64,000 nucleotides of DNA from Schmidtea polychroa (lineage: Eukaryota). The notes below the pieces were generated by a model. That model was given only the letters and a program-made list of their open reading frames with translations. It made no database searches and was not told where the DNA came from. A program made the translations under genes and the position numbers. Position 1 is the first letter of the stretch. Each line of letters starts with the position of its first letter. The stretch is from positions 107,322,001-107,386,000 of the forward strand of contig CM097886.1 in assembly GCA_044892525.1 (NCBI GenBank), read 5' to 3'. Below, in pieces: positions 2,485 through 29,413 of the stretch.

Positions 2485-3256
2485 AGTTTTGTTGCTCTTT
2501 ATATATTATTTTCCGTCCAATCAGGACACACCTTGCTTGTAATTTTGTTATTTATTATTATTTTATGTTTTTCTTATCGTAGTATATTATATTTTAATGA
2601 CCCTACCTATTTCTATTATTGTTTTATTTATTTTCCTATTTTTTATTATTTTTCTCCTATTTTTCTGTGGTTTTATTGCTATTTTATTGTAACTTCATTT
2701 TTTGTTTTAATTATCCTTATGGATGATTTTATTTTTATTTTGTTTTCCTTTAGTTTTCGTTTGTTTTCCCTAAATTTTGTGCCATTTTATTTCTCTTTTA
2801 CTGTTGTGCTCATTGGGTGCCTTCCCTTTTGTCTTATTTCCCCTTTACAGGTTTTGTTATTTTATTTAGTTATTCTTGTTTCTTTATGGATGTTTAATTT
2901 GTTTCTTCCTATATTTCTCGTAATTTTTATATGTTTTTATTTTATTTACTCTGTCTCTTCCTGGGTTCGTTTTTCCAACACCTTCAGAGCTTGGCCCAAC
3001 AAATCACTCCGGGGGCCGTTAAAATTGCGTCCCGCAATTCACACAATATCATACATTTAGATCATACCTTCTTTCGGTATAACCCATAATCTCACAATCA
3101 AAATCCACACAAACATAAAATCAAATTAACACAAAAATACTTTAATTAAACAGAGAAAATGACAAATATAAGCAAGCAGTGGCCACTTAAGGTGACCGGT
3201 TTCATCAGAAGATAATAAAACAGCAAAAATTTTGTCAATAGTTACAGTTCGAAATG

Positions 3257-3916
3257 TTATGTTTGTTGTTCGGTTGCCGTTGATGATGGGTGATTTGGTT
3301 GTTGGGTTTCGATGTTGTAGTATATTCGGCGACTTGTGGACGGTCTGACTGTTTCTGCGATGGAGGTTCGTTGTCGGAGATTTTCTTGGATTACGTCAGC
3401 CATATTATCTTCTTGGGATCTTCAAGACGATCTTTCCGGTACGGGGTGACTTTTCTTCCAAACTTGGTAGATATTATGGATTTTTAGGAGGATGATTACC
3501 ATGATTACGGTGGTTTCGACGATTACTACGTAGAGGAGTTCATGGTGGTCATTTATTTCTTTGGCGATTTCTACTGGTTCGACTGGGTTTTGTATTTCTT
3601 GATGTTGGACCTGTTGTTCCAGCTGATCGAGTTGGTGAATTTGGTCCAGGATTCTTTTATCAATAATTTTGCACATGGGGTGGTTATTACACATTAATCT
3701 GATATTGTTGACGTACGTTCGGGTAACTCGAATATTGTCGGTAAGACGGGTTTTTAGGATACTTGGATAGATGCATGATTTGGCTGTTGGTTCGGTCTTT
3801 TGGTTGGGTTTTCTGCTGTCTCGAATATGTTCAATTTCGGGTTTTACGGGTTGTCGCCTTGTCAGATCAAGGACTATCGTCATCATCAGGATTATTATGA
3901 TCGGTTTGTTTCTCAT
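3257..3916 (-). CDS. Accessory putative membrane protein; stops at TGA 3422-3424, or continues 54 more codons to TAA at 3257 if read through
   Basis: N-terminal MRNKPIIIILMMTIVL and second hydrophobic stretch LLYVVIVETTVIMVIILL. The frame stays open after the TGA (RSQEDNMADVIQENLRQRT...). Confidence 0.6.
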
Positions 3917-3975
3917 ACTACTGATATACATTTAGTAATTTTATACACATTTATATACATCGCTTTTTGTCGGTT

Positions 3976-4683
3976 TTAATTTTGTCGTTTCTTTTTAGGG
4001 TTTTTCTCCCGGATTCGCATTAATTTAGACTCCGCTTTAATGACTCTATGTCGGAGTTCCGGCAACATTTCTAGTTGTCTCTCTTTCTCCTGGACCTTGT
4101 CTGTCAAGTGTCTTATCTCTCTTTTCAAGGTTTTTATCTCCTTCTTCTTTTCTTTCAGGTTCCGTTCCAGTTCCAATTGTAGGAAATCATTTTCCTCTGG
4201 GTCGTTTGTCTTTGAGTTTTGTTTCTGCCGTTTTGTTTCTATTTCTCGATATTTACTATTCCATTTCTCCATTTCTGTACTTTCTTGTACTTTTACTTCC
4301 AGCTGGTTTTCTAACTCCTTGATGGTTTCTTGTCGTTTCCTTGCTTCCGTTTTCCAATAATCTTCGATTACTTCGTTTGCCTTGAAACTGGCTCTCTCCT
4401 GCCATAATTCTTCCGCGATCTTTTCCCAATTTCTCCCTCGCTTTCTTTGTTCGTGAAGCCATTCGTTTTCTACTTCTACTTCTTTCTTTATTTCCTCCAA
4501 TGTTTTGCATTCCCTTTTTAGCGCCTTTATCATTCTTCGATCATCCATATATTTGTCTATCATCCTTTCTTTTTCCTGTTTCTCCTCTATCAACTCGTCC
4601 TTCGGCGTTTTCATTTTTATGGGGTCTGTTTCAATTTCTCCCTCTTCTAGCTCGGTCATGGTGGATATTTCTTCTATTTTCAT
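3976..4683 (-). CDS. Accessory coiled-coil protein (~235 aa from MKIEE)
   Basis: Long K/E-rich ORF; likely ATG at 4683, preceded by TTGTAG|AA. Confidence 0.75.
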   Translation of the reverse strand: MKIEEISTMTELEEGEIETDPIKMKTPKDELIEEKQEKERMIDKYMDDRRMIKALKRECKTLEEIKKEVEVENEWLHEQRKRGRNWEKIAEELWQERASFKANEVIEDYWKTEARKRQETIKELENQLEVKVQESTEMEKWNSKYREIETKRQKQNSKTNDPEENDFLQLELERNLKEKKKEIKTLKREIRHLTDKVQEKERQLEMLPELRHRVIKAESKLMRIREKNPKKKRQN

Positions 4684-4858
4684 TTCTACAATATTTACAA
4701 TTAATAGTGCGCTACAGTGCGGCTTATACTTATACATTTATAGGTAATTTTATATAATCAGGGTTACAGTCCCGTAAATATTTTTATCGTACTAATAATT
4801 TTTTTTTGTTGGGATACAGGTCCCGCTTTTTATATTTTTTTATCTTTTCTCCTTATCT

Positions 4859-5897
4859 TTATACAAAGGTTTCTTCCTGGCCTACATACCCTTCATCGCT
4901 GTCTATTGACGTTTGTAGTTGGATTGCGATGGGATCGAATGGGATGTGGTACCGGGGAATCTGCGCTCTAAGCTCCTGAACTTCGTCTCTTAGCGCTCTT
5001 GACACGTTGAGTTCCTCGTCTAACAGGTATGTCAGATACCTGGTTTCATCATCTCTTACTTCTATCTGTTTTTCTAACTCCTCCGCTTTTTCGCCGTTCT
5101 CCCATTTTTTGATCTCCTTTTCGAGGTTCTTGATATTTTCGTCATACATCTTCCTCTCGTTTTCCAATTTCTTGTTCTTACCGGCTAGCACTATATTCCT
5201 TTGTTCTAGTGCCCCCTTATAGCCGTTATTGTCTCTTTCAAGGTCTGCCACCTTGTTTACGAGTTCGACGATTCTACCTGACTGTTGCAGGATCATCTCT
5301 TCCATGGCGGTATTCTCCTGTTCCTTCATGGACAGTTTCATGGCCAGATGCCTTTCAAATTCCATGGCCTTGGTCTGCCAGGTTTGACTTCTAGCTGCTA
5401 CTTTCCGGAGCCTTCTTAGCTCTTCTTTCTGATCCAGGTTTTCTTCCCATTTCCCTTGATCACTCTCGTGTTCCAATCTCTGCGGCAATTCTCTCATCTC
5501 TTTTTGGATTTCTCGATGTTGTTTTTTTCCCCTTTCTGGCTTCTGCTAATAGTTGGCGGGTCTTTCTTTCCTCCTTTTGTTTTTCTATTTCCCGCTTCTT
5601 ATTCTCATCCGTTAGTCTTTTTCTTGACTCCTGTACCAGCTGCTTCAGGTAATGCCCGTGTGCCTCTTGCCTGGTATTTTCTAATGCCGACCATTTGGCG
5701 GCTCTTTTGCAGGCCTCGGCCTCCGCCCGTAAATTCTGTACTAACCACTGGAACTGGTGGTTTTCCCATTCTCTCGCTTCTTCGAGGTAATTTCGTGTTT
5801 GATTTGATAATTGTGCCATCACTTTGGCCCATCTTTCTCTATGTATTCTACTGATGTTTATTTCGTTATTTGGGGCTTCCGTTTGATCTTGAGTCAT
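4859..5897 (-). pseudogene. Coiled-coil accessory gene split by a 1-nt frameshift in an A7 run
   Basis: Removing one A from GGGGAAAAAAAC (T7 at 5522-5528) joins LLAEARKGKK to QHREIQKEMRELPQRL in a continuous helical protein of about 345 aa. Confidence 0.65.
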
Positions 5898-6115
5898 CTT
5901 TGTCTAAATAACGATATCATTAACTCAACGTTGTACGCTTTTATCTGGTTTATTATTTATTTATTTTTACAATTCGTTATAGGAGTTGTTTTAGGAGTTT
6001 TACGCTTAAGTTTACCTTTAGTAGATTTGGGGGATTTTTCTACACTACTATATAATATTTTACGGGGTATATATGCCGATATTTACAATTAGTATATACA
6101 AAATTATTCGTCTCT

Positions 6116-7504
6116 CTACTCAGTCCTACTCTTCCCGTCTCGCCTCACCGCTATTTTTATGTATATAGTGTCGTTTCTCGTCATGTCTTCTACTTTCCGC
6201 TGTAGGATGAAATTCGGTGCTCCAGTTGCTGGTCCTTCTTCTTCCAAGGGCCTTTGGTAACATACGAGGTTTCCCGCTGTATGGAAACTCTGTTCATGTA
6301 TACTTTGATAGTTCATCATTGCGAGGTCTATTTTTGCTTTGAATGGCCATTCTATTAACTCGTCGTATAGCCCTTTGCACATCAAGAAGAATACTGAGAA
6401 ATGCGTTCCGTATGCACTTCCATCCCCATTGGGGTATGCTTTCATTTTCATTTTATACCCGTTTTTTCATGAGTAGAATGCTGGACTTAGTAATGTGGTA
6501 TCCTTTCCATTTCTCGCTCTCTGCATCTTCTCTTTTACTCCCGTTATTTTCCATATGTATGGAGCCGTTGGTATTAATTCGTTGAGGTTTAATTCGCTTA
6601 CTTTTTGACGTAGTTCTTTCACCATAATGTTGCTAGTTTCCACTAGATCTGTCTGTATCTTTGTACTTGTTCTCGCCTCTTCAAATGCTTCCTTTTCTTC
6701 CAATAACTCTTTTACCAACGCTTTTAGCGAGACCATTTCTTTCTCTAAGTTTTCGGTTTTCCTTTCGTTTTCTTGTAATACCGTTGACCATATTTCCGCG
6801 TGTGTTGATACGTTTTCTGCTAGATGTTGGGGTAATTCTCCTCGGTGTAATTGTTTCTGACATCCCCATTTTCCTAGCACACACGTTATCTTTTTCCTTT
6901 CACATTCTCTGAGATGTTGAGCGAGTCTTATTACTCCAGATTTATCGCATTTATTGGGACATTCTCCTCTGAACCCTGCTCACACTTTCTCCTCTTGTAT
7001 GTTGTGATGTTGACTGATTAGTTTTTTCCAGGTGTCGGTTTCTCCGCAATACTCACATTTCTCCAGTCTTTCTTCGCATCGACTTTGATGTTCTGCTTCT
7101 TCATTGACTTTAATCTCTTCTTGGCAACGTTTGCATTGACTGATTTTATACTCACATTGCTCCATATGTTGCCTCACTTCCCATATCCCTCCTCGCCAAT
7201 TGCATGGGGTGTTTTTACATCCTAAATTTGAATTTAACATATCTTTCACGGCTGCTTTATCTTCGTTTGTATCTCCCAAACTTGTTATCATGGTTTCTTT
7301 ACATACTGGGCACCATTGTGGTCCCTTCTTTATTATCTCCTCTACACATTCTCTGCACATTCTGCATCCACATCTGGTTTGGTGAGGTTCTCTTAATAAG
7401 CTCTTGCATATTCCACACGTTACATGGTTGTGTATTCGAATTGTGGTGGACTTTCTGACTTGTTCAACAATTTCTTTGAATTCTTCTCGTTGTCGCTTAT
7501 CCAT
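6116..7504 (-). pseudogene. TRAF: Full-length TRAF-family gene (RING, TRAF zinc fingers, coiled coil, MATH) with two in-frame TGA codons; pseudogene or read-through
   Basis: The three track ORFs (6980-7504, 6467-6880, 6116-6451) share one frame of 463 codons. RING CGICKSLLREPHQTRCGCRMCREC...CPVC; CPNKC zinc finger; MATH YIWKI...SPAFYS*KNGYKM..YPNGDG...THFSVFF...G.YDELIEWPF. Confidence 0.92.
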
Positions 7505-7593
7505 TTCTATAATTATATATATACATATATTCGTTACTGGTACAGTTTCGTATTTTTATTTACAGTTATTTACATTGCTATTTTAGGTTATAT

Positions 7594-7953
7594 TTATTGG
7601 CTGGAAGAGTCGGCCTCTTGTCCGCCCTCTTCCCTACTGGTTAACCATTCTGACCAGTCTTCTATCTCCTCTCGCTCCATCTCTTCCGCGATTCTTATTA
7701 ACTCCTCTTCTTGCACCTGGCTGTATCGTGATATTCGGTCTATCTCTCGCTGCATTTGTTCTATTTTTATTCGTTGGTCTTCGATTATTCTTACATAACT
7801 GAAGCCTTTATTTAAACTTTCGACTAAGCTTCTTTGTACAGCGAGTCCTTGTTCCTGTAAATTCGAAATCACTTGAGTTAACATTGCACATTGTTGTTTC
7901 CACATCTCCTCGGTTGTCGTACTGTGATTTACTTCCTCGCCTATTCGCTCCAT
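7594..7953 (-). CDS. Accessory acidic coiled-coil protein (~119 aa from the ATG at 7953)
   Basis: E/Q/R-rich ORF bounded by AT-rich spacers; no family recognised. Confidence 0.6.
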   Translation of the reverse strand: MERIGEEVNHSTTTEEMWKQQCAMLTQVISNLQEQGLAVQRSLVESLNKGFSYVRIIEDQRIKIEQMQREIDRISRYSQVQEEELIRIAEEMEREEIEDWSEWLTSREEGGQEADSSSQ

Positions 7954-8121
7954 TCTTAATTTATATATACTTTTCAACCCTTATCCAATTTTATTTTTAT
8001 ATTATTTATCCCCATCGTTATATAATATTGATACCGCGGTTATATAAAAATATATCATACTGTTATATAAATAAATATTATCTACTTACTTTTTACAATC
8101 TATATACAGTCATAATCCTTT

Positions 8122-9125
8122 CTATATACGTGAGCTTGGAGGGCGCTGAGCATTCCAGGCCTCCACCCACTGTTCCTGCTTGATATTACTTGGTCGTTTT
8201 ACACGATGTTGAAAATTTCTTATTCTGGCCATTTCTAGTTCTCCGCGATGCCGTCTATCTTTGATTATTTTTATTGTCCCCCCCGTTATGATTAAAAAGG
8301 CCCCTGTTATTATTATGCCGCTGATCCACATCATCTGTTTTACGCTTATAATTTCCGCTTTTTCCTTGTTCATTATTGTTGATATTGCCTCTGTGCTTTT
8401 TAGATTACCGTCTTTGCCATTTCCTTTTATCATTCCTCGTATTCTTGCTATTTCCTCGTTCATACCTTCCTTTGCCATTCTTTGTATTTTCTCCATCTCT
8501 TCCTCTGATACATAATTGTCCTGATATTTCTCACCGGTTTTCTTGCGTTTTCCTTGCTCATCTTTTTCGTCATTGATTTTTCTTTTCTTCCCTCTTTTCC
8601 CAGGGTATCGTCGACATTCTCTTTCTGGACCGTTTCTCAGGATACAGACCGTATATTCCTTTGGTGGTTGTTGTTGCGTTACATATTGCAGACAATTTTC
8701 TCCTGGGCCTAGCCTTGAAATACACACTTTGTGCTCTTTTCTTGGTTGAAGCTGTGTTATCACTATTTCACCTCCTTTACTCAGGTGTACCTCTTTCCAT
8801 TTGACTTTTGTTATCTTCTTCCCGTTTCGATGTTGGTACGCTTCTTGTATTCCCACTTCCGTTATTGGTTCTGCATCTTCATTTTTTAACACTAGTCTCT
8901 GATAAGCTCTAGACATACATCTTCCTAATATACACCTTTCTTTTAAATCCCATTCTTCTTTTAGATCCCATTGCTGCTCTTGTACTTGTTTTTTCTTTTC
9001 TTGTTTTAGTTCTTCCTCTTTGTTGTCCTTATTTTCCGTTTCTTTGGCTTCTTTTATCGTTCTCATTCCTCCCTGGGCTGTTATCATTTCCACCATTGTT
9101 AATACGAGTATCATTATCATCATAT
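8122..9125 (-). other. C-terminal type-I-membrane-protein-like module
   Basis: Signal-like MMIMILVLTMVEMITAQG (9071-9125), two Cys-loop repeats, and TM MMWISGIIITGAFLIITGGTIKII followed by basic KDRRHR. Confidence 0.6.
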
Positions 9126-12100
9126 TTGTCTCCACTTCTTTGTTGGTAAAAAGTAGGCATACCCTCTGTTTTCCACTATTCGTCTTTTCTTCTTGCTTCA
9201 TTCGGTTTCCCGGGTTATTTTCCTCTTTTTTCCTACTCGCGTCGTTATTTTCTTGATTATTCTCCTCTGATTTCTCTTTCTCTTTATTCCCGTTTCGACC
9301 TTTTTCATTATTATCGTCGTCTTTATCGTCTTTATCTCCCCCGCTATCGTTTAAAATGTCGTCCTCGACATTTATATCATTCAACAGTCTGCGGTATGCC
9401 GTTAGCACCCTGTTTCTTGCTAATTTTGCTTCGAATTCGAACTCTTTTCTGCCTGTTGCTGCATGTCTCTTTCTATTCCATTCTTTTACTAGTTCTCTCA
9501 ATTGTATACGGCGATGTTTTCCGATTCGTTTTTGTTCGTTTAGATTTTGCGTAAATTTGAGGTCTTCTCTGTTCAATACTATCGTTATGATTTTCGGAGT
9601 TCCTCCTTTTGTTAATGTATTTTTAACCATGGCATTTTCTCCGTTTTCATAGAACTCATTTATATTTATTGCATATTTATTACTTTGCGGTAATTTCCAT
9701 GTTAACAATAGCTTCATGGCTTCTAAGTTTTTCCGTATCGTGTTCCATTGGAACTGTGACGTATTTTTACAGATATTTTCTACCTCAGTTCTTGTAGCAT
9801 TTTTACAAATGAATCTAATCATTTCCAAGTTTGGTTGTATTGTTGCCCAATCCATGGTAGAATTTCCTTCGTTTGATATTTCGTCAAGACTCGAACCTGA
9901 TTGATGTAGTATATGTAAGGTTTTCGGGTGTATCTTTGTTATTGCTGCATACATCATTGCTGTTTCTCCTTGTTCATTTTTTGCATTAGATTCTTCTCCG
10001 AAGTCTCTAAGAATTCTTATGATGGTTATTGCTCTGTTTTCTTTTGCTGCTAAAATGGCTTGTTGTAATGGTGTTCTTGAATCTTTTGTTGGTAAGGTGA
10101 ATGCGAGTGGTATAAATGTTTTTATTTTTCCTATGTCTAGATTTGTGGTCTGGTCTCTTGCGTAGGTGTGTACTGTTTTTGTTATTTTTGCTAGTATCGC
10201 TTCATCGGATAGATCTTGCCTTTCCTCCACGAATACTTCTTTAGCCTTACGTACTACTATCTCTTGGTCGGAGTTTATTATCTTTGGTTTACTTGTTGTT
10301 GCTATATCGCTTATTATTTGATTGACTCGTTTCTCAGACTCCCTTGCTGTTATTTTCTTGGTTTTTATCCTTTTCTGGTTCGAACTGTTAATGCGTTCCT
10401 CTGCCGTTAGAACTTGAATAATACTTAGGTAGTTTTCTCGAATGTCATTCATAGTTTCCATCATATATAATACACTCACGGTTTCCCAAAATTTTTCTTG
10501 TACTTTATCGGTAAATTGAGATATAGCTTTTTCGAAGTTGGTAATTCGTTTTCTGATTAGTTGTTCGTCTTTGTGATTTGAGAACTTTATGCCACGTTGT
10601 AGTAGTTGATTTGGAATTTCGAATAGGTGATGTCCTCTCATCGCTTCTCTCATCAAGGTGTTTTCTCCTTTGGTAAATGTTTCGTTTATATCTACCATAT
10701 AATCGTTTTTGATCGGGTTCCTCCATGCAATTAGTAATCCAGCAATTGTTATTAATTTCTCTTTGATTGCAGTTAATAGCCCGTCATACATGTTTCCTAT
10801 CTCCCTATTATCCTCGTATGATAATAGATCTACTAAGATTATGAAGGCTTTCGTACTTTTCCCTTCGATTGCATGATGTAGTGCATTTTTCTGGTTGTGA
10901 TCTTGTGTGGTTATCTTTGACCCAGTTTCAAGTAATGCGATATTAATATCTTTAGCTTTATCCCGATTGGCTGCTATCATTAGTGGAGTGTAACCTTGGT
11001 TGTTTTCTTGATCCGTCGAAATGTTACAGTCGCGAAATGCTTCGATCGTTTCCAGTATTTGTTCATTATTCCCGACCTTTAAAAGTTTGTGCAGCGGTGT
11101 ATCTCCATAATGGTCTGTGATCGTAAATAATATAGGCCATTGACTTTTTACTACCCTGAGTAATGGGTGTGTTCTTTCTCGGTTTGCATAGTTTTCGATC
11201 ATGGTTAGCAGACCTCCCAATATCTCAAAATCTAATCTGTCTTTTGCCCATCCGGGCATTTTAGCTTTCACTTCCTTTATGATTTTCTCGGCTTCTGATG
11301 GTTGTAACCCCAATCGGTTACCTGTTGGTTCGTTTATCTGCTGTAACACATTTATTCTATACGTTTGTGATCTTGTTGTTAATGTTCGCCCTTCCGGCTG
11401 GCTGGTGGCTGTTTTCGGTATTGGCTTACATCGTGCCACGTTTACATATATTGGCCTCGTGAAGGGGTTGTTTACCAATCGTACTCGCACATTGGTTTCT
11501 CCGACGAATAGAATCTCATACGGACCTTTGCCGTTTCGTTGTAATTTTTTGGTGGTTCCTGGAATTAATTCTGGTGTTTCGATCATCACCCAATCACCGG
11601 TTTGAAATGTATGTTGTTTAACGTTTTTCTTTCTATCATGCAGATCTTTGTAACTTTCCTGATAAAACTTTATATTTAATCCCGCAGTTTCCCAGATTTC
11701 TTGCATTCTTTCCTTGAACTTGGTTACATAATCATCTATTTCCATATACTGTGATATTGGTGGCTGATATTCTAAATCCATTGGCATATTGCATTCTCTG
11801 CCGTACATCAACTTAAACGGACTCATCTTTGTGGACGCGTGAATCGACATTCTGTAAGCCATTAAACATAATTTTATATACTCGTCCCAGTCGCGTTGAT
11901 GACGATCGACATAATTTGATAACATTTGAATCAGTGTTCCATTGAATCTTTCTGTCATACCATTAGTTTGTGGATGGTACGGTGATGTTCTTAATTTTGC
12001 GATCTTGAAGTAGTTGGTGACTTCGCTCATTATTTCGCTCATGAAATTTGTCCCCTGATCGGTCAGTATCTGTTTTGGTGTTCCATATCGACAACATATC

Positions 12101-21100: not shown

Positions 21101-21996
21101 GAGATGTGACCTGGCTGACCGCAGTTAAAGCATCCTCTCAACTGGCATATATTTTCCGTGTGTCCTCGTCGTCCGCATCTATTACAATTTGCGTTTCGGT
21201 AACAATTTCTATCCCAATGTCCTGGTTTACCGCATGTTCGGCATTGTTTGTTATCGTTCGTATTTCGTCGATTATTAAAATTATTTCCATTGTTCGAGTT
21301 GTTGCGTTCACTGTTATTCCCGTTTGATCGTCCTTGCGGTGGTTTGAAAATTTGATGCGCACCTGGTATAAACTGATTCATCTTCGGTTCATGATTGTTG
21401 TTATCTCCATTTTCCGTTTTCACCGTTGCTGATGCGATTCTTCCCTCCTCCTGCATGACATTCATTTGTGCCGGGAGGTGTAGTTCGCATCTTGTGGCCC
21501 AATCTATGGCCTCTTCTAGTGTTTTACACATCTGACATCCCACCGAGGCTCTTACCTCTTCCCGGCGTAGTCCTTCTATGAAGTAACCAATTAGATTTTC
21601 CTCCGGCAAGTTTCCGTTCATGGCCTTCTTTGCCAATCTTCGCAATTCGCTCGCGTATAACGTTATTGATTCATTGGCTCTTTGTTTTCTACTCGCTAAT
21701 TCTCCTAGGGCTTGATTTATTGGTTTGCTGGCCCCGAATGTTTTCCTCAAAAATGTTTTGATGCTTTCCCAATTGTCTAATTTCGTATTCCTCTCTTTTG
21801 CTTCTAGGTATACTTCGAGTGCGCTATCGCACAAAAACAGAGGCATTCGTTTACTAATTGCTTCCGCTGTCCATCCGCACACATCGATATAGACTTCAAA
21901 ATTTGTTATGAACGTTGCCAACTTGTTCGCATTCCCGTTAAACGGTTCGCCTCTAAATTTTTCTTTATACTCGTCGGTTTTTACCACATTCATCAT
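8122..21996 (-). CDS. 4,624-aa Gag-UBL-Bcl2-Env-PR-RT-RH-IN-ANK-TM polyprotein, copy 1
   Basis: Single uninterrupted ORF ending in TAG. Motifs: CCHC x3, DTG, YIDD, TDAS, HHCC/DDE integrase, ankyrin TPLH-type repeats. Confidence 0.97.
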   Translation of the reverse strand: MMNVVKTDEYKEKFRGEPFNGNANKLATFITNFEVYIDVCGWTAEAISKRMPLFLCDSALEVYLEAKERNTKLDNWESIKTFLRKTFGASKPINQALGELASRKQRANESITLYASELRRLAKKAMNGNLPEENLIGYFIEGLRREEVRASVGCQMCKTLEEAIDWATRCELHLPAQMNVMQEEGRIASATVKTENGDNNNHEPKMNQFIPGAHQIFKPPQGRSNGNNSERNNSNNGNNFNNRRNTNDNKQCRTCGKPGHWDRNCYRNANCNRCGRRGHTENICQLRGCFNCGQPGHISRDCRERSQQQQPPQRNNNYAPNPQRQSNPSEGKQMNVMQEISQMKQMMQQMMRPRQEPVAQQTQNIRMMRSTENLNNYEVQQHAQEWQRLQAEEERIKRERIQQRQEQPLRINMMRMVKEIKEQYCYNYGKNPRVVPMIEPEKPKETVTEDKKENPTTPLKGNQRIQKIFWKKIKDKIEREHEKTKTEAEAINDGNEKQTSHLTHEMVQELESEELTIFENKKLKKVSRMRNLRINMMRTTKKVLSTDDEEDYVSSLGGEILQLNENIEQLKKKIGEDEEKSESDVASESEDENIEMKLRKEKEEAIKQVKEILPVVVRNQDFIDIIPYRRFIQKIMKLERNEKDLIPSEEKAIIKKYMEKMKQAETTRYVIKIGTSKGLERIWIKNTVTDDLFDWIREHLGNSRKKEYLYQYQGEQIKPDMHLIDALIWPGETQILKLHKEKQPANVHEWAKDAKAEYDFNIKLKLEQIKQCTLRRNLDKLIKQIQEQVEDNWDLLIAKRTPTMHELMSRLRDTELLRMSDWRTINLIHKYGRLKETQPQKLEITIWLPNEEKRRIKMSNQSTVDDLVTKINQEITEKVRSESSDGMIDDVVMMYDKIILRAEDDTSLSEMGMWDNHQIIKILPMDEFRTRDVTYQKEIRDRMKTLYQKSVEIIEIHQQWLKEKELQGKIKKLSTRSCRRTPWERMWNAENKEWEIRKGIFVETDIGETESESEEEEDEPPKYEEDEIESISDDESETDVTSESETETRHIHAMRKKEREYADMDSEEAMEAREREEKERYKQLGDILATGAKNQKRQVIALANIILKTSENIHNLREMAKAIEEYRQYNEWYPEQLEQIIRKWRNQEWAQDTQERYRIRVKYPDQSIEDTEVHPTTKIRELKKKLAYETPFHLQLFGKSLDDNADVGITPMRLGEINVLTMAETLGKPIKRKSKSSKPTKGSLSTPSPNKVASKSNETEEIEEIILEDSDEGAGERSQILVRWPTGAEIWTTSQPSTSYQQPNKLSIEEIIDNTTETETDEQFQRQKGPTKATPEGQTDKIIDEWNEWLRNNDSSLPRTDNERNPSYETTRETGTMMEKRAKGRPRKQGEKPEFKTREQLKQEQGQVRLEKLDKIVWDLKEAQPTIERGEKWIRELVKDMLIITNPQLRRLWQRKVASVDARQLWNTISGIIPKLIKEKTKTTKTDWEETRRVIEQLTLNANDDEHHLVVLTYLMYNLMGLAARKIPNKQFANHVEMTVTIIENTIEPHIIRAGGWKRLIQAPRKNDQERSMQIRLKKLLNELEWELPLKDPASRKASINSLMMTMMIWMLCTSGAAGFTIYDCDNSIIGERYSLRDIEECRQASPNKLDIVKKKVSYHVYQESDFIRTQARECVVSKKVLAYYCGQYSYSTLILPGLDKEIVPIQREDCKELFRTGAMRIRDGVTIHGQSGMIKTESIYVAGRVKSTDGSCNGGTYTIRGEVISGVVVIESYTVELKEYEAQFDANNYQMKTNPACRATENVCRTGISTIIYEANTQKCRLQLLKSALFNEVKGEIYENEDDDEENGNVRMRNGKPVPPSPKEKRLTTQKTPTALITDDPDIGMRFIREKETTKCDSIVYRTNYAGIYMSRQVIDRAVGKVSTEDVKLYLYANNKMDFLFHRGQTTMQKVYYDLIQNDCSLNKEILKTKLAIAITHPDNTMPSLPLPDGHFGRMVGEVMYTYACTKTFARLPRKPTIPPGKCANELEISYKGQNRFVQPVTRIMNPIGFYPNTFNCSNAYGPLYEKPDGKWIMLPVKTEVQEPKKFGLIELATEQDFKPIDVSKAGMYSAEDLETARLNVLFPARRESILSNMVTITGGTNFQSGPNYELLLSPDHFQQATSNMMKAMWGRFLVFGQMMAGILGIILIIQIVRVILTQMLACFDIYKREKKVNWKLIVGFLPFLAKTMVLHGHSKDIHRIKRLIKILTKIKGTDEEVGRRFRKTMYDEATRTQLKKNKPKFLDRFRNRSNSSDSDDDDNGNDKYPYPSRNPNEKPIETAPYWEKEKTNTWIANGSYIPPDIVGQQTALTMTQNMYPQLPSQPGMNYMPTRRTKSVDQADDVRTIAVMSSPGGAAVTVMIQINGKETSAMIDTGANVSAIAINQIPSKCWKDIEQTTIHIIACSKETVDVVGRWWTTLRYQDNEIETYLAVIPKLSEPCIIGTDLMPELFKEVVIDLTTMCLKDKMGRICKMNAIIRFPEKIIVPAKSQMICQIKVDAGMEGEAIFEPSKSFEKRRELPLAREIITINDEGEIPINITNFEEEDKIIYENERLGRLTPMIDIELPKITNETTKADELWTIDSTLLTEKEKERLQQLLIEYKDIFAISDLDLGACDVTLHAIPLIDETPIALRPYKLAEKQKEIAEAEVQKMLDAQVIEPSCSPWQFPVVMVKKKDGTQRFCIDYRKLNAVTKRDTYPLPDINEMLLMLQGAAYFTSLDLKSGYWQIKVKEEDKEKTAFTLGRDLYQFRKMPFGLTNAPASFQRCMNFVTHGIKQCMVYIDDLLIYSATFEQHLEDIRNVFVRLRQWKLKLKPSKCDWAKEKVTFLGHIVSAKGKEPDPRNIEKIKTCPAPKTVTQVQEFLGLCGYYRKFIKNYAGIAKPIQELVKKDISFIWGAEQQKAFETLRDKLIEAPILVHPDFKKPFLLATDASGYAAGAILGQLDEEGKERVIGYYSRTFKKHEKNYSVTEREALAIIQAIKHFRYLLWGHEICITTDHQPLVWLGQHKEASSRLMRWAMQLQEYSPFIKFKAGRANANADCMSRFIFPDLVDHEMQRICLMVAEDLDFCQLRKDQQEDTELKQIIEYVKTGKAEVYEKDQKLKEHMDKHRHRYIIEKDWLLIMDGEKRLMCIPENRRKDLLTQYHDGRLGGHMSSKKTLARMKQKYFWPTLTEDVTEWVKNCITCATRKNTGTKWKAPLKPMPVPAEPMTMISMDVVGPLPESDRGNIYILVITDYLTKFPEAFAMTDQKAKTIAKILVEEICCRYGTPKQILTDQGTNFMSEIMSEVTNYFKIAKLRTSPYHPQTNGMTERFNGTLIQMLSNYVDRHQRDWDEYIKLCLMAYRMSIHASTKMSPFKLMYGRECNMPMDLEYQPPISQYMEIDDYVTKFKERMQEIWETAGLNIKFYQESYKDLHDRKKNVKQHTFQTGDWVMIETPELIPGTTKKLQRNGKGPYEILFVGETNVRVRLVNNPFTRPIYVNVARCKPIPKTATSQPEGRTLTTRSQTYRINVLQQINEPTGNRLGLQPSEAEKIIKEVKAKMPGWAKDRLDFEILGGLLTMIENYANRERTHPLLRVVKSQWPILFTITDHYGDTPLHKLLKVGNNEQILETIEAFRDCNISTDQENNQGYTPLMIAANRDKAKDINIALLETGSKITTQDHNQKNALHHAIEGKSTKAFIILVDLLSYEDNREIGNMYDGLLTAIKEKLITIAGLLIAWRNPIKNDYMVDINETFTKGENTLMREAMRGHHLFEIPNQLLQRGIKFSNHKDEQLIRKRITNFEKAISQFTDKVQEKFWETVSVLYMMETMNDIRENYLSIIQVLTAEERINSSNQKRIKTKKITARESEKRVNQIISDIATTSKPKIINSDQEIVVRKAKEVFVEERQDLSDEAILAKITKTVHTYARDQTTNLDIGKIKTFIPLAFTLPTKDSRTPLQQAILAAKENRAITIIRILRDFGEESNAKNEQGETAMMYAAITKIHPKTLHILHQSGSSLDEISNEGNSTMDWATIQPNLEMIRFICKNATRTEVENICKNTSQFQWNTIRKNLEAMKLLLTWKLPQSNKYAININEFYENGENAMVKNTLTKGGTPKIITIVLNREDLKFTQNLNEQKRIGKHRRIQLRELVKEWNRKRHAATGRKEFEFEAKLARNRVLTAYRRLLNDINVEDDILNDSGGDKDDKDDDNNEKGRNGNKEKEKSEENNQENNDASRKKEENNPGNRMKQEEKTNSGKQRVCLLFTNKEVETNMMIMILVLTMVEMITAQGGMRTIKEAKETENKDNKEEELKQEKKKQVQEQQWDLKEEWDLKERCILGRCMSRAYQRLVLKNEDAEPITEVGIQEAYQHRNGKKITKVKWKEVHLSKGGEIVITQLQPRKEHKVCISRLGPGENCLQYVTQQQPPKEYTVCILRNGPERECRRYPGKRGKKRKINDEKDEQGKRKKTGEKYQDNYVSEEEMEKIQRMAKEGMNEEIARIRGMIKGNGKDGNLKSTEAISTIMNKEKAEIISVKQMMWISGIIITGAFLIITGGTIKIIKDRRHRGELEMARIRNFQHRVKRPSNIKQEQWVEAWNAQRPPSSRI
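9560..11170 (-). other. Two ankyrin-repeat modules after integrase (~10590-11170 and ~9560-10090)
   Basis: GDTPLHKLL, GYTPLMIAA, KNALHHAI, SRTPLQQAI, GETAMMYAA, GNSTMDWA. Confidence 0.85.
11415..12460 (-). other. DDE integrase with HHCC zinc domain and GPY/F motif; no chromodomain seen
   Basis: H...GH...CITC; DVVGPLP; TDQGTNF; PYHPQTNGMTERFN; GKGPYEI. Confidence 0.96.
12750..14030 (-). other. pol: Reverse transcriptase and RNase H
   Basis: YIDD at 13531-13542; LDLKSGYWQI; FLGH; RNase H LATDASG, EREALAI, TDHQPL, NANADCMSR. Confidence 0.97.
14480..14810 (-). other. Aspartic protease
   Basis: VMIQING...AMIDTGANVS (DTG at 14752-14760) and CIIGTDLM. Confidence 0.93.
15300..17200 (-). other. env: Envelope glycoprotein, chuvirus-glycoprotein-like (class III-type), with internal signal peptide and C-terminal TM anchor
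   Basis: Signal SLMMTMMIWMLCTSGAAG then FTIYDC...YSLRDIEEC; YYCG; AGRV..DGSC.GG; YANNKMDFL; GEVMYTYAC; CANELEI...F.QP.TR; GMYS.EDL...VLFP; TM FLVFGQMMAGILGIILIIQIV. This Cys/motif order is what I recognise from chuvirus-like glycoproteins. Confidence 0.8.
17311..17775 (-). other. Bcl-2-like domain within the polyprotein
   Basis: ENTIEPHIIRAGGWKRLI matches BH2 (Bcl-xL NDHLEPWIQENGGWDTFV). Helix spacing upstream fits alpha4-alpha6. The BH1 NWGR motif is degenerate. Confidence 0.7.
18334..19998 (-). other. Three ubiquitin/SUMO-like beta-grasp domains (~19785-19998, ~19228-19476, ~18334-18531)
   Basis: YQYQGEQIKPDMHLIDALIWPGETQI (SUMO-like); LEITIWLPNEEKRRIKMSNQSTVDDLVTKI...DDTSLSEMGM; YRIRVKYPDQSIEDTEVHPTTKIRELKKKL...LQLFGKSLDD (ubiquitin-like). 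Matched by eye to ubiquitin/SUMO patterns. Confidence 0.6.
21091..21996 (-). other. gag: Gag capsid plus three CCHC zinc knuckles (copy 2 = +26412)
   Basis: Capsid-like FNG...FITNFE...W...L...A...W..IK..L...F; knuckles CRTCGKPGHWDRNC, CNRCGRRGHTENIC, CFNCGQPGHISRDC at 21091-21243. Confidence 0.93.
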
Positions 21997-23265
21997 GACT
22001 GGTTCTTGTAACTCTATTGTTTCTTTTAAATTTTCCAGCGGTGTCGCTAAATTATGGACGGATAATTCTTCGGTTGACCCGGTTAGGTTGTTTGTTATAT
22101 CGGATAGGCTTTCTCTGCTTCTAGATCGACTAGGGGTGTATCCGAGGTTTTCTTGGTCAAATGTTGGTACTTGATTTGTTCTTTTTGCTCCTTGTGATCT
22201 TCCTCTTTGCTGTTTTATGGATCGTCCTCTTCTGAGCTGTTCTAGTTCGTCTCCTGAAATTAATACGTCTCTTGACTTACTTGAGGATCTGAGATTTAGT
22301 TTCTCCGTGATTTCTTCTTACGCCTCTTTATCGTCTCTTATGGATTTCTCGGCAATTATCGGCTGCTGACTTGAGCGAATTCGGTTTTGTCGGTGTTCCG
22401 AGTCCTTGGCAATTGGTTGTTAGCGTTATGAGACGTCTTCCGTTCTTGGAATCTTCGGGTTGTGTTACTCCTACTGAGCGGGTTCTGGATTGGTTATTTC
22501 TAGTTGGTCGTTGATTTCTTCGAATTCCTTTGTGCAGGTTCTGGATTGGCTTGATTGACTGGATTGGTTTGGTATCTAAAATGAAAAAATGATCTCGTGT
22601 TGCATCTGCTCACACGACTTCATCATTCTTTCTTCAACATTCAAACACAGACACCGTTTAGGGCCTCTGTTATGCTTCTCTTTATTTCCCCATACAATTT
22701 CTCGTGGATTATAGTTACCCATCAACCCATAATTTTCGTCGATTTTAAATTATCTATTTAGGGTAGTAATAATTATCTATATGGTCGTATGAATTATCTA
22801 TAATTATCATTTATAATATCGATAGGTCGTTGTCAGTTACTGCTTATCACCCCCCATATTCTCTTAATCCTTTTACGCGGTTCCGCTATTTTACTTAGTC
22901 TTCCGTCTCTGTTCCCTTTTACTCGGTTCTACTCTGAACCAAAAAAAAAATCAGATTCGTTTATCCAGTTTAAACCAAAAATTCTGTAGACTTTTGTCTA
23001 CTTACTTGGGATCCCCTTTAATTAATTAATTATCTTCCTTTTTACTCGTCATTTATTCCCACTTATTCTCTACTTTTACTATCTCCTCAATTCATTTTCC
23101 TTTTCTGATTCTCCTTTTCTACTAAAAGGGTTTTACTTTCATCTTCTACGAGCTCGTTTAATCCTTTCTAAATTCGACTTCTCGTATCCCAATTCAATTC
23201 GTTTCTAGCTAGCTTAATATTCTATCTCATTATCAACTTAAATATTATCCAATCATTTTCTAGGC

Positions 23266-23700
23266 CTTTACGACTGGCTGGCACTTTTCAACAGCTCAAT
23301 CTTCTTCCTTCTGACCGGTTGGACTATTCGACAACTCGATCTTACGACTGGCTGGCACTATTCAACAGCTCAATCTTCTTCCTTCTGACCGGTTGGACTA
23401 TTCGACAACTCGATCTTACGACTGGCTGGCACTATTCAACAGCTCAATCTTCTTCCTTCTGACCGGTTGGACTATTCGACAACTCGATCTTACGACTGGC
23501 TGGCACTATTCAACAGCTCAATCTTCTTCCTCTCCAAACTGGCTGGACTTTTCACAGCTCAGTTTTTAATTTTTTTTTCCTGACCGGCTGGACTTCTCGA
23601 CAGCTCGGCCTTAATATCTCCCGACTGGCTGGACTTTTCACAGCTCAGTTTCAATTTCCCTGGCCGGCGGGACTATTCAATAGCTCGGCCTTAACATCTT
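23266..23700. repeat. Tandem repeat in the 5' leader: 74-bp unit of two related ~37-bp halves, then degenerate monomers
   Basis: CGACTGGCTG recurs at 23271, 23345, 23419 and 23493; (GA)CYGGYTGG-C/A-CTWTTC-ACAGCTC monomers continue to ~23695. Confidence 0.92.
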
Positions 23701-24271
23701 CGACTCTGCATGCTTCTATCTTTTCTTTACCTTTATTCTAGACTGTCATCTCTCCTTTTATTTTTACTTTTTATTTGTCGATCTAATCTGTGCCGCTTGA
23801 GAATGTTTCCCCTTTCCCCCCTTGCTCAAAACGCAAAACGATCGCATTGATCCATTTCTACATTGGTATGGTGATCAGTCATACCGCAGAAACTTTTCAA
23901 TATTCGCGATGGTACCTCGCCTTACATCTCTTACTCGGGGTGATCGGTTATCCCTTCCCAACCGGTTTTCGTGTATCGTACCTCCCGAAGGTGGCTCGGT
24001 TTATTCCCCCTTTAATCCTATGTTGGGACTAGCTCCACTTTATTTATTTGTTCAAATTAAATTTATAGATGTTCTCTCTCTATGATGAAAATTATCATAA
24101 AGTTACTGAATTCACAATAAAATGAACACGCAAAACATTCTATTCATTAGTTGGCTTAAATCACATGCAATATACAAATTTACTAGAAAATTGTTGATAC
24201 ATCAATTAAACATAAAGGATTTAGTCAAATCGTCAATCAGATCAATTCTTTCACCGAGTGCTGCTCGCGTG

Positions 24272-24751
24272 TTAACTGAAGTAAATCGTGTGCTTCTCCT
24301 TTATTGCACATACACATAAAGAACAATCCGTTAAACTGACAGCGCATTCGTCGCAATGGCTAAGGTGTCCACAAGGTAGCATTAGAATTCTGGCAGGTCG
24401 CGTCTTACAAATGTTACAAGTTCTCAAGGCCGCTGCTTTTTCTATTATCGAGGTTCGTATTCTCTGAGATAGAGTTTTTACTTGTTCGCGTATTCTCACC
24501 TATTCGAGGTTCAGAGCGGGGTCGTCGAGTCGTTGCTGCATCCATTGGTAATGGACAGACAAGTCGGTGTCGGTATTTGTTGACCCCAATCTGTCGGTTA
24601 GAAAGTTTTGTTTGGATATCAGCGGTGCGTTGTGGCGTTGTTGCTCTAGGGTGTCTATTTGTTGCAGTTTTTCTCTTAACGTCTTTATGGAATCGTTTTC
24701 TATGTCGACGAACCGGCTTAGTCGTTGTAGGTGTTGTCGGGCTCCTGACAT
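24272..24751 (-). pseudogene. Coiled-coil plus IAP-type C-terminal RING gene in the 5' leader, with an in-frame TAG at 24500-24502
   Basis: Track ORFs 24500-24751 and 24272-24499 are in one frame (PALNLE*VRIREQ). CNICKTRPARILMLPCGHLSHCDECAVSLTDCSLCVCAIKEKHTIYFS follows the XIAP/IAP-type RING pattern. No BIR domain seen. Confidence 0.8.
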
Positions 24752-25158
24752 ATCTAAATAAGTATGTTGTCATTACTCGGTCTCACTTACAAAAATAAAA
24801 ATAATATTATCGTGTTATAATCAATGTTCGTTTGGCTTTGTTCGCCATTGTTTCTAGTTTATGTATTTTATTCAATCTTTAATAATTCTTTTTAATTTAA
24901 TTCATTTAAAATTAAACAAAATTAGTCAATTCCCATTTTCTCTTCCCTTCATATTCAATCGCATTCATTCAAACTTATTTAGGTTCGTTTTTGTTCATAG
25001 CATGTTCTATTTTACGCAAAGACAGTTCGCATCATCATCTTAATACACTATTATATCGATTCATTTCAGTCCCGATTCCCTTTTTTATTATAATTAATTA
25101 AATTGTTAGTCTAACACATCGTAATGCAGTAATAGGCAATCAAACAATTCGAAATCAG

Positions 25159-25176
25159 ATCCCGGCTGAGCCCCCA
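25159..25176 (-). promoter_or_regulatory. Primer-binding site complementary to the 3' end of tRNA-Pro
   Basis: Minus strand TGGGGGCTCAGCCGGGAT. The plus strand ATCCCGGCTGAGCCCCCA resembles the eukaryotic tRNA-Pro 3' end (ATCCCGGACGAGCCC-CCA type). It lies 7 nt inside the LTR end. Confidence 0.85.
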
Positions 25177-25183
25177 AAAATCA

Positions 25184-28100
25184 TGTTGGCATATGTGGGG
25201 AAAAAGAAATTTGTTGCACACATCATCATCTCACATCTCACATACCCTGCATCATTACTCCGCTCAGATACTCCCCATACATACACCAAATGATCATGTA
25301 CATATTCCCACGCATGAGCCCGTGGTGATGTTCCACGTTGGTGCTGCTCACACGGGTTGGAAAAGGTTAGCAGGTGAGCCTCTGCCTTAAGACTACTCCT
25401 AACCCTTTCTCGATACGGGTTCTACGGTGCCTTAGAAGGTCTTACCCCGTCCCACATACACAATTCGGTCCGACCCTGGTCCAAGGGGACGACCTTGTAT
25501 TATCACCTACATTCGACATCATCTTTCCACTCGTATCAACTTCGATATCTCACCTGTTAAAATCAATCATCAGAAACAATAAAAGATGTATTAACTTATA
25601 ACAAATCATTACACGCAGAATAATCAAGAACTGTTTTACATGTAAACATACAGCATTTATAAACACGCAAGTTCACTTCGGGACCATGCATAGAACAAGG
25701 CACCTTTGAATTGATCAATCGAAGGGTTCTCCATCCGCAAGCATTGCGTCGATATCGACCGGCAGTCGTGGGTTAGAAATGTACTTGATGCCTTCTGCCG
25801 GTATTACACGAAAGATTTCCTTTGATGGGATGGAATGGCTGGAGGATATTTCTCTTATGGTAGATTGAGCTACAGATAGTGACGCCTCGAGAGCAGCCAT
25901 CGCATCTCGGCGTTTCTGATTTTTCTCGGCTCAGGTCGGCCGTTTCCGTTTGCGAGACGACGGGGGATTGTCAGTGTGCGGGGTGACGACGGTTGCCCCC
26001 AAGATTGGAGCCAAGATGGGCTCGGTAGGTCTACCTACCAAGGGTTGAGAACCCGATAAGATTGGAGCTGGAATGGGCGGTAGGCACGATCCATGCCCTT
26101 GGCAGCTCGTAGCAGTCGGTTCGGATACTTGATGATGAAGAGGGAAAACGTTCATTTTCTCTATGACGGGAAATTCCCGTACCCGCTTGGCGAGTTCTGC
26201 CTCCGTATAAACCTTGTGGAGGGCTTCTGATTGGGCTTTGATTGTAAGCCGTTGGCATCGGCTTTCCTCCAGCAAGCTATCTCTACAATGTTCTAACCGG
26301 AGGATTTTCTTTCGTTCCTCCTTCATTTGTGGCGGGGAGAACCACGTGCCTTCGTAAAGGTCGATTCTTTTCTTTAAAGCCCCGATGTATAGATGGAGCT
26401 GCGCGATATCTGCATTTTTATCCGCGCAGGAGAAACATGGGCGAAGAGTTTTCTCAGCAGTTGTAAAAGTAGTCATCTAAAGAATGAGAAGTCCTTTATT
26501 TACATCATTAAAATCCTTTCTACTATTTATTTTCTTTTTATCGTGAGCTTTATCCTACCACATATGCATACAATCAGGATTGTCCCCCACATCCATACCT
26601 TTGACATCACTTAACTCATCCAAACCGTAAACCTTCAAATCAACCCATCACATCGTTCGTAATGAAGAGAAAATGAGAACCATCACACGTTATTTCTCTA
26701 CTCATATTGATATTGTACCTAGGTTCCTGGGTCGACAGTTATCATCTAATCGCAATAAGTTACTCCTTACCACGGATATATTTTTTCCACTTTTATTTAT
26801 TATGACCTATTAAGGGTGGGTCTACTCCCTGGTTTTTATGGCTTATTGCGTTATGCCTGCTTTAATTTAAAAGAAGTAGTTCCATACTGTTGATGCACTT
26901 GGCGCTGTATTAAGTTAAAACGAATTTGTTAAAAATTATTATTAGTATTAATTTCCCTCATAAATTATAATTTAATTATTTAAATTTTCGCATTTCATGT
27001 TGTCATAACGACGCGTATCGGTATGTAGTTGTGTACTGGTTTCAGACTCTACCTGATGTGCGCTAATGTGTATTATCTCGTTTTACTCAATTATCGCTGT
27101 CCTCTCTTAACAACTCTAGACATGGTGTCTGTTAGTGTACTTTGATCTCGTCGTTTATTTATGTATGCCTACTAACACATTCTACTATGACGCAATGATG
27201 ATGTCAACTCACACACGTCCCTTGTACTAGTGGATTTATCTGTGTGTGGGTTTGGGCCTACTTATCTCAGTTATAACATTATTAGCAGATGGGCTAGACG
27301 GATGGAAGATAATGATTCAGGCTTATAGAAGTAACGATTGTTATGATTTCAAGATTGCCCAAATCTGTTACCGGGTAAAAATGGATTTAACTCCTATCTC
27401 TCTCGTGAATGTTGACTATTCTCAAAAACCTAATCGTCTCATCGATTTGGCGCATGTCGTTCCACAATCGAACCGCTGGAATATTTTATCTACGCTACTT
27501 GCTTCTCTGCAATAGTCGTTTCTCGATCAGATGGAAAATTTATCGATAATTTGTTCGAAATGGTCGATGATAATTTCCTTTAGGACTGTAATAAGTACCT
27601 ATGATTAATTAGAACTTTGCTGTTTACTTTCCTGTCAGGACGAATCCTTATCGATGACAGTAGTTAATCGAAGGTTGATAACTAAGTCTCCTACTCGTCA
27701 AATGACATATCACCGCGATGGGTTTACTCGCTAACGTTCTCTTAATTTATCAATTCTTAGGAATATAGAATATTCTAGATTTTTATCATTCCTCAAGAAA
27801 CGAAAATGGACGTTAGAATTATCAGTGAAGTTCGAGAATTTCATTACCCTCAAGGATAGTCGATATTCACATTCTGACGAAAAGAAGTAACCTAGCTCTG
27901 AATTGAATATGGCCGAACTCAAACTCGGATTAAATATCGAAAAATGTCGTCGATCTCCTAGAATTTTCAGTCAGCACGTTGTCGGCATCGAAACCAGTAT
28001 CGTTCAGAAGTTTCCTCAATAGAAAACTTCCGACGGCTAATTTTATGGATATCACTCGATGAAAGGATCATTGACTCGATTCGTTTTCTCTCACAGGGTT

Positions 28101-29413
28101 TCCTCACCCCTCACAACCCACCCAAGGACAGTACGCATTTCTGCCCACTGCCCTTGGACCGTCGTGAAGGACAACTCGACCCGACTTATCTCAAATCCTT
28201 CTCCAATAAATGTACAATTAATAAATTCATATTACTGTCAAACAAATATGGGAATAATGAAATTAAAAGAAAAATCAAATAAATAAACGTTTACCTAGCG
28301 ACCACGCCATCTGGATTCCGGGTATGATGACTCTTGCCATCGTAAATTTTTACATTCATTAAGTAATCATCATAGTACCCAAGTTCATGTAGATCCTTGG
28401 CTGGTTCTGTCAATTCAATTTCTGGGTATTCATATTCATAAGTTTTCTCCGAAATGCATACGTAATCCAGCCGCATCATACCCGAACTTCAAAAGACGTC
28501 GTCGCTAGCATCATAGAGAGAAAGCAACATCTTTTGTTTTTAAATATAAATTTTATTGAAACATAAAACGTCTTTTGATATTAAATTCATAGTAAACATT
28601 AAAATTATCATACTAAAATTCAAAACATAATTTACCAAAATTCTCCGAAGGTGTTGGGATTGAAATCAAAGTTTTGTCAAATTTTTCCTTAGTTAGACTG
28701 GTTCTTCTCAACTGGATTCGATCTCGACTATTATTTGCCTCTAAGTACTATCTGTTATGTCCAAGTATGAATATCGTTCGTAAGTCTGTGCTCGTGAGTG
28801 GTTCCTAGTTTCGTCCTGTAGAGTTTCGGGTTAGAATGATCATGATTTTAAATAAATTTTACCTGTAGAGTTTCGGGTTAGAATGATACTCTACAGAGTT
28901 TTGTTGCTCTTTATATATTATTTTCCGTCCAATCAGGACACACCTTGCTTGTAATTTTGTTATTTATTATTATTTTATGTTTTTCTTATCGTAGTATATT
29001 ATATTTTAATGACCCTACCTATTTCTATTATTGTTTTATTTATTTTCCTATTTTTTATTATTTTTCTCCTATTTTTCTGTGGTTTTATTGCTATTTTATT
29101 GTAACTTCATTTTTTGTTTTAATTATCCTTATGGATGATTTTATTTTTATTTTGTTTTCCTTTAGTTTTCGTTTGTTTTCCCTAAATTTTGTGCCATTTT
29201 ATTTCTCTTTTACTGTTGTGCTCATTGGGTGCCTTCCCTTTTGTCTTATTTCCCCTTTACAGGTTTTGTTATTTTATTTAGTTATTCTTGTTTCTTTATG
29301 GATGTTTAATTTGTTTCTTCCTATATTTCTCGTAATTTTTATATGTTTTTATTTTATTTACTCTGTCTCTTCCTGGGTTCGTTTTTCCAACACCTTCAGA
29401 GCTTGGCCCAACA
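25184..29413 (-). repeat. LTR copy 2 (4,230 bp, shared by the two units)
   Basis: Starts TGTTGG (25184) and ends CCAACA (29413), a perfect 6-bp terminal inverted repeat. The PBS lies next to the left edge. The right edge is fixed by the host junction of copy 3. Confidence 0.92.
25715..26476 (-). CDS. LTR-encoded ORF (181 aa, or ~253 aa if the TGA at 25931-25933 is read through) with basic NLS-like RKRKR
   Basis: ATG directly after TTCTCATTCTTTAG; the downstream 61-aa ORF is in frame across RKRKRPT*AEKNQKRRDAM. Confidence 0.6.

Follow-up and report, generated by a model that had tools for sequence, protein, structure and literature searches.

According to PMC6431247, the Schmidtea mediterranea element Burro1/GYPSM1 (Jurka 2007, Grohme 2018) is a giant gypsy-like retroelement of about 30 kb with extended long terminal repeats (LTRs) and a single polyprotein of about 4,700-4,900 amino acids (aa). 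The polyprotein holds gag with three CCHC knuckles, Ubi2/SUMO-like and BCL2-like segments, an envelope between BCL2 and protease, a dUTPase-like segment, and ankyrins; tandem repeats, accessory open reading frames (ORFs), and TRAF/MATH cargo complete the element. For Burro elements, section 7 of PMC6431247 places env in frame between gag and pol, lists Ubi2/SUMO, BCL2, MATH_TRAF_C, BIR, and ankyrins, and proposes provirus status and interference with apoptosis and ubiquitination. Here, we analyzed 64,000 nucleotides from Schmidtea polychroa (GenBank assembly GCA_044892525.1, contig CM097886.1, positions 107,322,001 to 107,386,000 of the forward strand), hereafter the window. The element in the window is a giant Ty3/Gypsy element of this published Burro type (30,642 bp, 4,731 codons) and shares the features listed above for Burro1/GYPSM1 itself. 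Two further lines of work bear on the comparison. PMC13524379 reports GAG-ENV-POL elements with HSV/gB-type envelopes from flatworms, nematodes, and bryozoans, including six in S. mediterranea; its main text contains neither "Burro" nor "ankyrin" (0 occurrences). Lee et al. 2026 (Dev Cell, as cited in PMC13465017) found that the BIR-RING protein of Burro1 (B-IAP) protects stem cells from apoptosis.

Unlike Burro1/GYPSM1, the window's family carries neither a MATH domain in the polyprotein nor a BIR gene, and its TRAF occurs only as a full-length downstream ORF. The closer match to Burro1 in the same genome is a sister family (L063-L070) with MATH in the polyprotein and a BIR-RING gene as published. 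In a Burro-like element of Dugesia tigrina (PMC6431247), MATH likewise lies outside the polyprotein on a separate accessory ORF, but that ORF is upstream of a 5,140-aa polyprotein with two CCHC knuckles, whereas the window has TRAF downstream and a RING upstream. Smed_errantivirus_1-6 of PMC13524379 share the env-before-pol order and the fusion protein family with the window element. Compared by eye, the window env segment is ~55% identical to Smed_errantivirus_5 (87/157 positions), the env of the sister family resembles Smed_errantivirus_6, and that of a third family is nearly identical to Smed_errantivirus_2; none of the six is an exact env counterpart of the window's family. The B-IAP mutualism likewise concerns a Burro element with host-derived apoptosis genes, but the functional gene there joins BIR and RING, whereas the window's family has only a BIR-less RING ORF. 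An earlier, sequence-only reading of this DNA had guessed a Burro kinship, which the anatomy and the reverse transcriptase (RT) phylogeny below uphold. It had also supposed that the env-before-pol order and the TRAF/IAP cassette might be undescribed, but most of this is in print (PMC6431247; for the env order also PMC13524379). In the literature searched, Grohme 2018, Lee 2026, and supplements aside, which may contain it, no full-length TRAF, BIR-less leader RING, or BIR-less family is described for Burro elements; the available text of PMC11410931 mentions Burro once. Little remains beyond the published kind: a sister of Burro1 that lacks BIR, a map of selection on the cargo, and one copy with an excess of stops.

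Taken together, the evidence makes it probable that the window holds a young tandem insertion of a Burro-type element that is likely still copying, and that its host-like modules, which are under purifying selection, likely keep the expressing cell alive. The tandem is read from the repeat structure. Window positions 1-29413 match 26413-55825 with 2 differences (units 99.99% identical), and the repeat covers nearly all of the window. The region 3002-29413, previously read as one 26.4-kb unit, is indeed an exact repeat period of 26,412 bp (internal region plus one LTR), but it is a period of a two-unit tandem; a single element measures 30,642 bp, lies on the minus strand, and has 4,230-bp LTRs. 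All element features given below are read on the minus strand, apart from the leader repeats, which have no strand. With the window extended into the neighboring genome, three 4,230-bp LTRs with TGTTGG...CCAACA ends are seen: a left (3') LTR (1-3001 plus 1,229 bp before the window start), a middle LTR common to both units (25184-29413), and a right (5') LTR (51596-55825). The second internal region (29414-51595) differs from the first at one base. TAAA at both outer flanks forms a 4-bp target-site duplication around the whole tandem, and comparison of the two outer LTRs shows 3 mismatches in 4,230 bases (0.07%). At LTR positions 113 and 997 the middle LTR carries the bases of the right LTR, and at 3808 that of the left. 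This ordered hybrid pattern is what unequal crossing-over within one insertion, between its two LTRs, would leave, and such an event is the likely origin of the tandem. Spacings of 26 kb also occur in other family copies (C1:72659033/72685426 and C4:46239039-46291874), where LTR-sharing tandems recur.

The remaining architecture is that of a Ty3/Gypsy element, with gag, the order protease, RT, RNase H, integrase, TG...CA LTR ends, a target duplication, and a tRNA primer site. The 18-nt primer-binding site (25159-25176), 7 nt inside the 5' LTR end, is complementary to the 3' end of host tRNA-Pro and is exact in 29/30 5' stretches of other copies. No plain purine run was found as a polypurine tract in the 40 nt before the 3' LTR. 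The leader contains 74-bp tandem repeats (23194-23705). A long tandem array of tRNA-Pro(TGG) genes with a period of ~475 bp, whose tRNA fits the primer site, lies at C1:130899509-130952345; genome-wide, the 22-nt pattern has 1,555 occurrences.

The polyprotein frame is intact over 4,731 codons (8122-22317; first ATG at 21996). The sequence-only reading had described a complete Gypsy module with a fusion glycoprotein and ankyrins, and Pfam matches bear this out: a gag capsid domain (E 3e-9) with three CCHC zinc knuckles (21088-21843); the envelope (15388-17202; PF24664, E 1e-71); protease, a dUTPase-like segment, RT, RNase H, and integrase in Gypsy order (11640-14802); and ankyrin repeats after integrase (9718-11115; E 9e-14). 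The envelope, a Monjiviricetes/gB-type fusion glycoprotein with a signal-like segment and a C-terminal anchor (residues 2287-2305), is in frame between the Bcl-2-like domain and the protease. The dUTPase-like trace between protease and RT is weak (E 0.21). The frame ends in a C-terminal membrane module with no Pfam family (8122-9135; hydrophobic residues 4395-4413 and 4659-4677). The polyprotein coding strand (8122-22317) is A-rich, with 40-46% A at all codon positions, and an RINMMR-like motif, a possible protease site, recurs at residues 472, 518, 641, and 3655.

Three ubiquitin/SUMO-like domains had been proposed, and the fold is structurally confirmed, on a predicted model, for one of them, the third (18313-18531), with matches to ubiquitin, SUMO, and ISG15 at Z 9.9 and an rmsd of 2.0 A across 70 residues. 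The first two, probable ubiquitin-like domains (19213-20001; residues ~773-855 and ~948-1035), are only suggested by a low-confidence strand-strand-helix pattern in the predicted structure; the second also has a weak match to the PI3K Ras-binding domain (E 0.004). For the Bcl-2-like domain (17278-17715), the assignment is weak but concordant across Pfam, Foldseek, and a host-profile comparison. What we take to be the BH2 motif (GGW) is kept, and the presumed BH1 motif (NWGR) is degenerate. The Pfam match (E 0.023) is below the Pfam cut-off. Fold results are to be read in light of a poor model (pTM 0.51): 34/35 rows listed by Foldseek are Bcl-2 family members, all at E >= 0.1 and a TM-score of ~0.3, and a wide fold search gave a best Z of 7.5 with no Bcl-2 protein among the 50 rows listed, which on such a model speaks neither for nor against the assignment. 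A profile of seven element segments scored 32.5 against host Bcl-2 proteins, where 30 shuffles reach <=17.8; the match spans the BH1-BH2 half, and it is the BH2 half that carries the apparent homology. No usable match to this segment came from the ESM Atlas, and sequence and profile searches of the PDB returned nothing significant for the Bcl-2-like, ubiquitin-like, or env segments.

Pfam matches to Bcl-2 are repeated many times genome-wide, some in ~3,050-aa frames and one set in ~176-aa frames with a common internal TAG, which could point to additional families of elements that carry Bcl-2, or to a stop that has been conserved. Seven near-identical Bcl-2 genes are clustered at C4:89.9-90.8 Mb.

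Beyond the polyprotein, the element encodes seven small sense-strand ORFs: one in the LTR, one in the leader, and five downstream. Four of the seven have no assigned family. The LTR ORF (25715-26476), which spans 247-266 aa in other copies and matches no Pfam family, has an in-frame stop at 25931-25933 in the window copy. The 159-aa leader ORF (24272-24751) combines a helical N-terminal part with a C-terminal C3HC4 RING of the IAP/MDM2-like type (E 2e-9); it had been read as an IAP-type RING, and the RING holds, but there is no BIR domain and a stop lies at 24500-24502. Pfam searches of the ORFs in the window, and of intact accessory ORFs from the other copies L004/L024, revealed no BIR domain. 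Downstream of the polyprotein, an intact 119-aa helical ORF (7594-7953), with a homologue in the sister family, is followed by an intronless TRAF (6116-7504; 462 aa in other copies). As proposed earlier, its architecture is full, with RING, Zn fingers, coiled coil, and MATH (E 4e-22), but the window copy has two in-frame stops (6980-6982 and 6467-6469). Next come a 345-aa coiled-coil ORF (4859-5897; frameshift near 5520 in the window copy), an intact 253-aa coiled-coil ORF with an open frame (3976-4737), and a fast-evolving membrane ORF (3257-3931; 208-224 aa in other copies). The membrane segments and LTR ORF of the sequence-only reading were thus located, although this last membrane ORF (stop at 3422-3424) and the LTR ORF are broken. 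Contigs from two runs (two studies) join window position 3863 to 7263, skipping 3,399 bases with non-canonical ends, possibly a deleted variant without most accessory genes; two poly-T loose ends occur among element-covering contigs of runs only guessed to be RNA. We do not take these contigs as evidence of expression.

The element belongs to a large and young family. Identity is 98-100% across the best 150 RT matches in the genome, of which 73 (hand count) fall in frames of at least 4,700 aa. Across 20 other copies, picked for an intact polyprotein, 137/140 accessory ORFs are open. By hand count, TRAF frames of at least 461 aa occur in 90 of the best 123 genome matches and the RING ORF is stop-free in 112 of the best 118; matching by hand, we found an intact TRAF frame in 32/34 other near copies with an intact polyprotein. 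Within the nearer subfamily, NG86 dN/dS is 0.08-0.14 for five accessory ORFs and 0.44 for the membrane ORF, and is not estimable for the LTR ORF. Between subfamilies, with saturated pairs removed and the integrase entirely saturated, ten polyprotein modules range from 0.005 to 0.08: gag 0.016, env 0.033, RT-RNase H 0.005, Bcl-2-like 0.015, first and second ubiquitin-like 0.044 and 0.014, ankyrins 0.059, and C-terminal membrane module 0.081. The corresponding value for TRAF is 0.06. Given the open accessory ORFs in other copies and the low dN/dS, the gene kit is a selected part of the family, and the one-off captures against which the sequence-only reading had wanted genome copies surveyed do not account for it. 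The TRAF, RING, Bcl-2-like, ubiquitin-like, and ankyrin modules are kept by purifying selection.

Relatives in the same genome place this kit in context. The sister family shares 77% pol and 59% env identity with the window's family and has a MATH domain inside a 4,791-aa polyprotein, with the same leader RING. Its downstream region (L070:259-7190) encodes a 151-aa ORF, a full TRAF, the BIR-RING (BIR E 1e-15), two coiled-coil ORFs, and a membrane ORF; the accessory order is that of the window's family, and the MATH in the polyprotein is a second MATH. A third, compact family (L106-L107) has a 3,334-aa polyprotein with gag, ubiquitin-like, and Bcl-2-like segments and env before pol. In the protein database, the closest pol regions belong to 12 metagenome polyproteins (49-52%), each of which has the same env ahead of its protease. 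In a quick RT-RNase H tree, built from 52 of 89 rows and without named Metaviridae references, these 12 proteins and the three local families, all with env before the protease, form one clade (SH-aLRT 99, 18/52 rows). Among the rows of the RT tree, none of them a named Burro sequence, the window's family is sister to the Burro1-like family L065/L069 (SH-aLRT 100). Metagenome polyproteins of the same clade (P0030-P0043) carry ankyrins, ubiquitin-like domains, extra proteases, C2H2 fingers, and an Ig domain.

The MATH domain of the element TRAF groups with intronless non-element TRAFs of this genome (SH-aLRT 94, 26-31% identity), and the forks within this group are open. These non-element genes (L071-L078 and L080) have 455-476 codons, and the donor could be either side. 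Many MATH/TRAF-coding sequences in the genome are element-borne, so element transcripts may enter planarian TRAF transcript counts and RNAi (PMC6109357, PMC7586133), although the genome also has dozens of TRAF genes that appear to lie outside elements. The data do not support the idea that the planarian TRAF expansion (PMC6109357) is purely a transposon artifact: the best 50 of 150 MATH matches lack element-family frame lengths, and 0/12 fetched non-element TRAF loci adjoin Burro cargo.

The window copy itself has five in-frame stops and one frameshift across five of the seven small ORFs, together with an open polyprotein. None of the five stops occurs in the 8-30 fetched copies that cover each site. 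Among changes private to this copy, 5 of 13-16 in the small ORFs are stops, versus ~5% expected without selection (P 3e-4 to 9e-4, by a test picked after the pattern was seen), and the polyprotein has 0 stops among 61-174. The first private-change count was open to bias from divergent copies; under two alternative definitions, with 13 and 16 changes, these five stops come out again. The LTR divergence of 0.07% predicts ~7 changes since insertion, far too few for the 74-190 private changes, so most of these are likely older than the insertion. The accessory ORFs would accordingly be dispensable in cis, as the window copy suggests, with other copies supplying them if needed. Chance, selection for loss, or local error may each have produced the stop excess. 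Stop-codon readthrough or an alternative genetic code was rejected for the broken ORFs, as other copies are open and none has these stops; with 3 transitions and 2 transversions, a deaminase-type origin is disfavored. Among public contigs, no listed piece bridges the stop sites.

As we picture its cycle, the element would be transcribed from the LTR and integrate with a 4-bp duplication, as is usual in Gypsy biology, after reverse transcription that is presumably primed by tRNA-Pro, with one giant polyprotein as the protein source. This polyprotein would be cleaved by the element's protease as well as by signal peptidase. The gene order suggests that env synthesis keeps pace with that of gag and pol and that env is freed at the signal-like segment, to act as a putative class III fusion protein. 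Spliced or trans-spliced RNAs may carry the seven small ORFs: ahead of the TRAF start, a T-rich TAG acceptor-like motif is seen in 19/19 copies, and ahead of the LTR ORF start in 16/20, compared with 4/162 internal ATGs. TRAF and RING might serve as ubiquitin ligases or decoys in survival signaling. Most likely, the TRAF, RING, and Bcl-2-like domain help the expressing cell to survive; the analogy is with host TRAFs, whose knock-down in planarians leads to more cell death (PMC7586133), and with the reported role of the Burro1 BIR-RING (PMC13465017). BURRO1 is derepressed upon SMEDWI-2 loss (PMC8532177).

Several observations weigh against the reading set out above. The reported pro-survival role depends on a BIR gene that the window's family does not have, and the BH1 motif of its Bcl-2-like domain is degenerate. 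Burro1 RNAi left the smedwi-2 phenotype unchanged (PMC8532177). The acceptor-like motif is found in 0/19 copies at the 119-aa ORF and in 7-12 of 19-20 copies at the remaining ORFs, under half for three of them. The stop excess in the window copy also exceeds what relaxed selection predicts. A high-copy sister of Burro1 without BIR-IAP offers a natural contrast for the reported host-transposon mutualism, and the gene map with per-module selection names cargo worth testing.

The foremost alternative, which we hold to be possible though distinctly less probable than cell survival, is that the element is itself infectious, a complex agent akin to a retrovirus that passes from cell to cell or from worm to worm and uses its accessory genes as immune-evasion factors, as large DNA viruses do. 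The sequence-only reading had proposed such a toolkit against cell death and NF-kB signaling; in the window copy, most of the kit beyond the polyprotein is broken. Such an agent would fit an intact env with a signal-like segment, an anchor, and strong purifying selection, the well-supported RT clade with env before the protease, and the two further membrane proteins encoded. What bears on infectivity here is env integrity and selection, and conservation of env also fits spread between the cells of one animal. PMC13524379 regards these elements as old and for the most part passed down along with the host; the idea itself was already proposed in PMC6431247.

We consider it improbable that the accessory genes instead serve the element's own cycle, through particle assembly, trafficking, ubiquitin-dependent budding, or RNA export, with no part in survival or immunity. 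The fusion of ubiquitin-like, Bcl-2-like, and ankyrin modules into a structural polyprotein would suit this idea, as would a Bcl-2-like domain without BH1, the missing BIR in the window's family, and the four small ORFs without a family. Yet the breaks in five of seven small ORFs apparently did not keep a lineage from giving a fresh insertion, and both the full TRAF and the BIR-RING of the sister family are signaling proteins. A comparably doubtful extension of the survival reading would make the window lineage a replication-competent cheater, selected to drop shared trans-acting genes while keeping its polyprotein, in a family that swapped BIR-IAP for a TRAF/RING/Bcl-2-like route. If true, cooperators and cheaters of a host-transposon mutualism coexist in planarian genomes. 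Finally, assembly or polishing errors are a very unlikely source of the tandem or of the breaks: near-identical units, stops shared by no other copy at their sites, and the fact that none of 40 scored copies is 100% identical would fit such errors, but the tandem as a whole sits within a single target duplication, its middle LTR combines the two outer LTRs in an ordered way, similar 26-kb spacings occur at other loci, and 14 kb of polyprotein would not stay error-free.

Outside the tandem, the window contains a 288-codon minus-strand frame with no Pfam match (59077-59943) and a 550-bp MITE-like element with 95-bp terminal inverted repeats (63224-63773).

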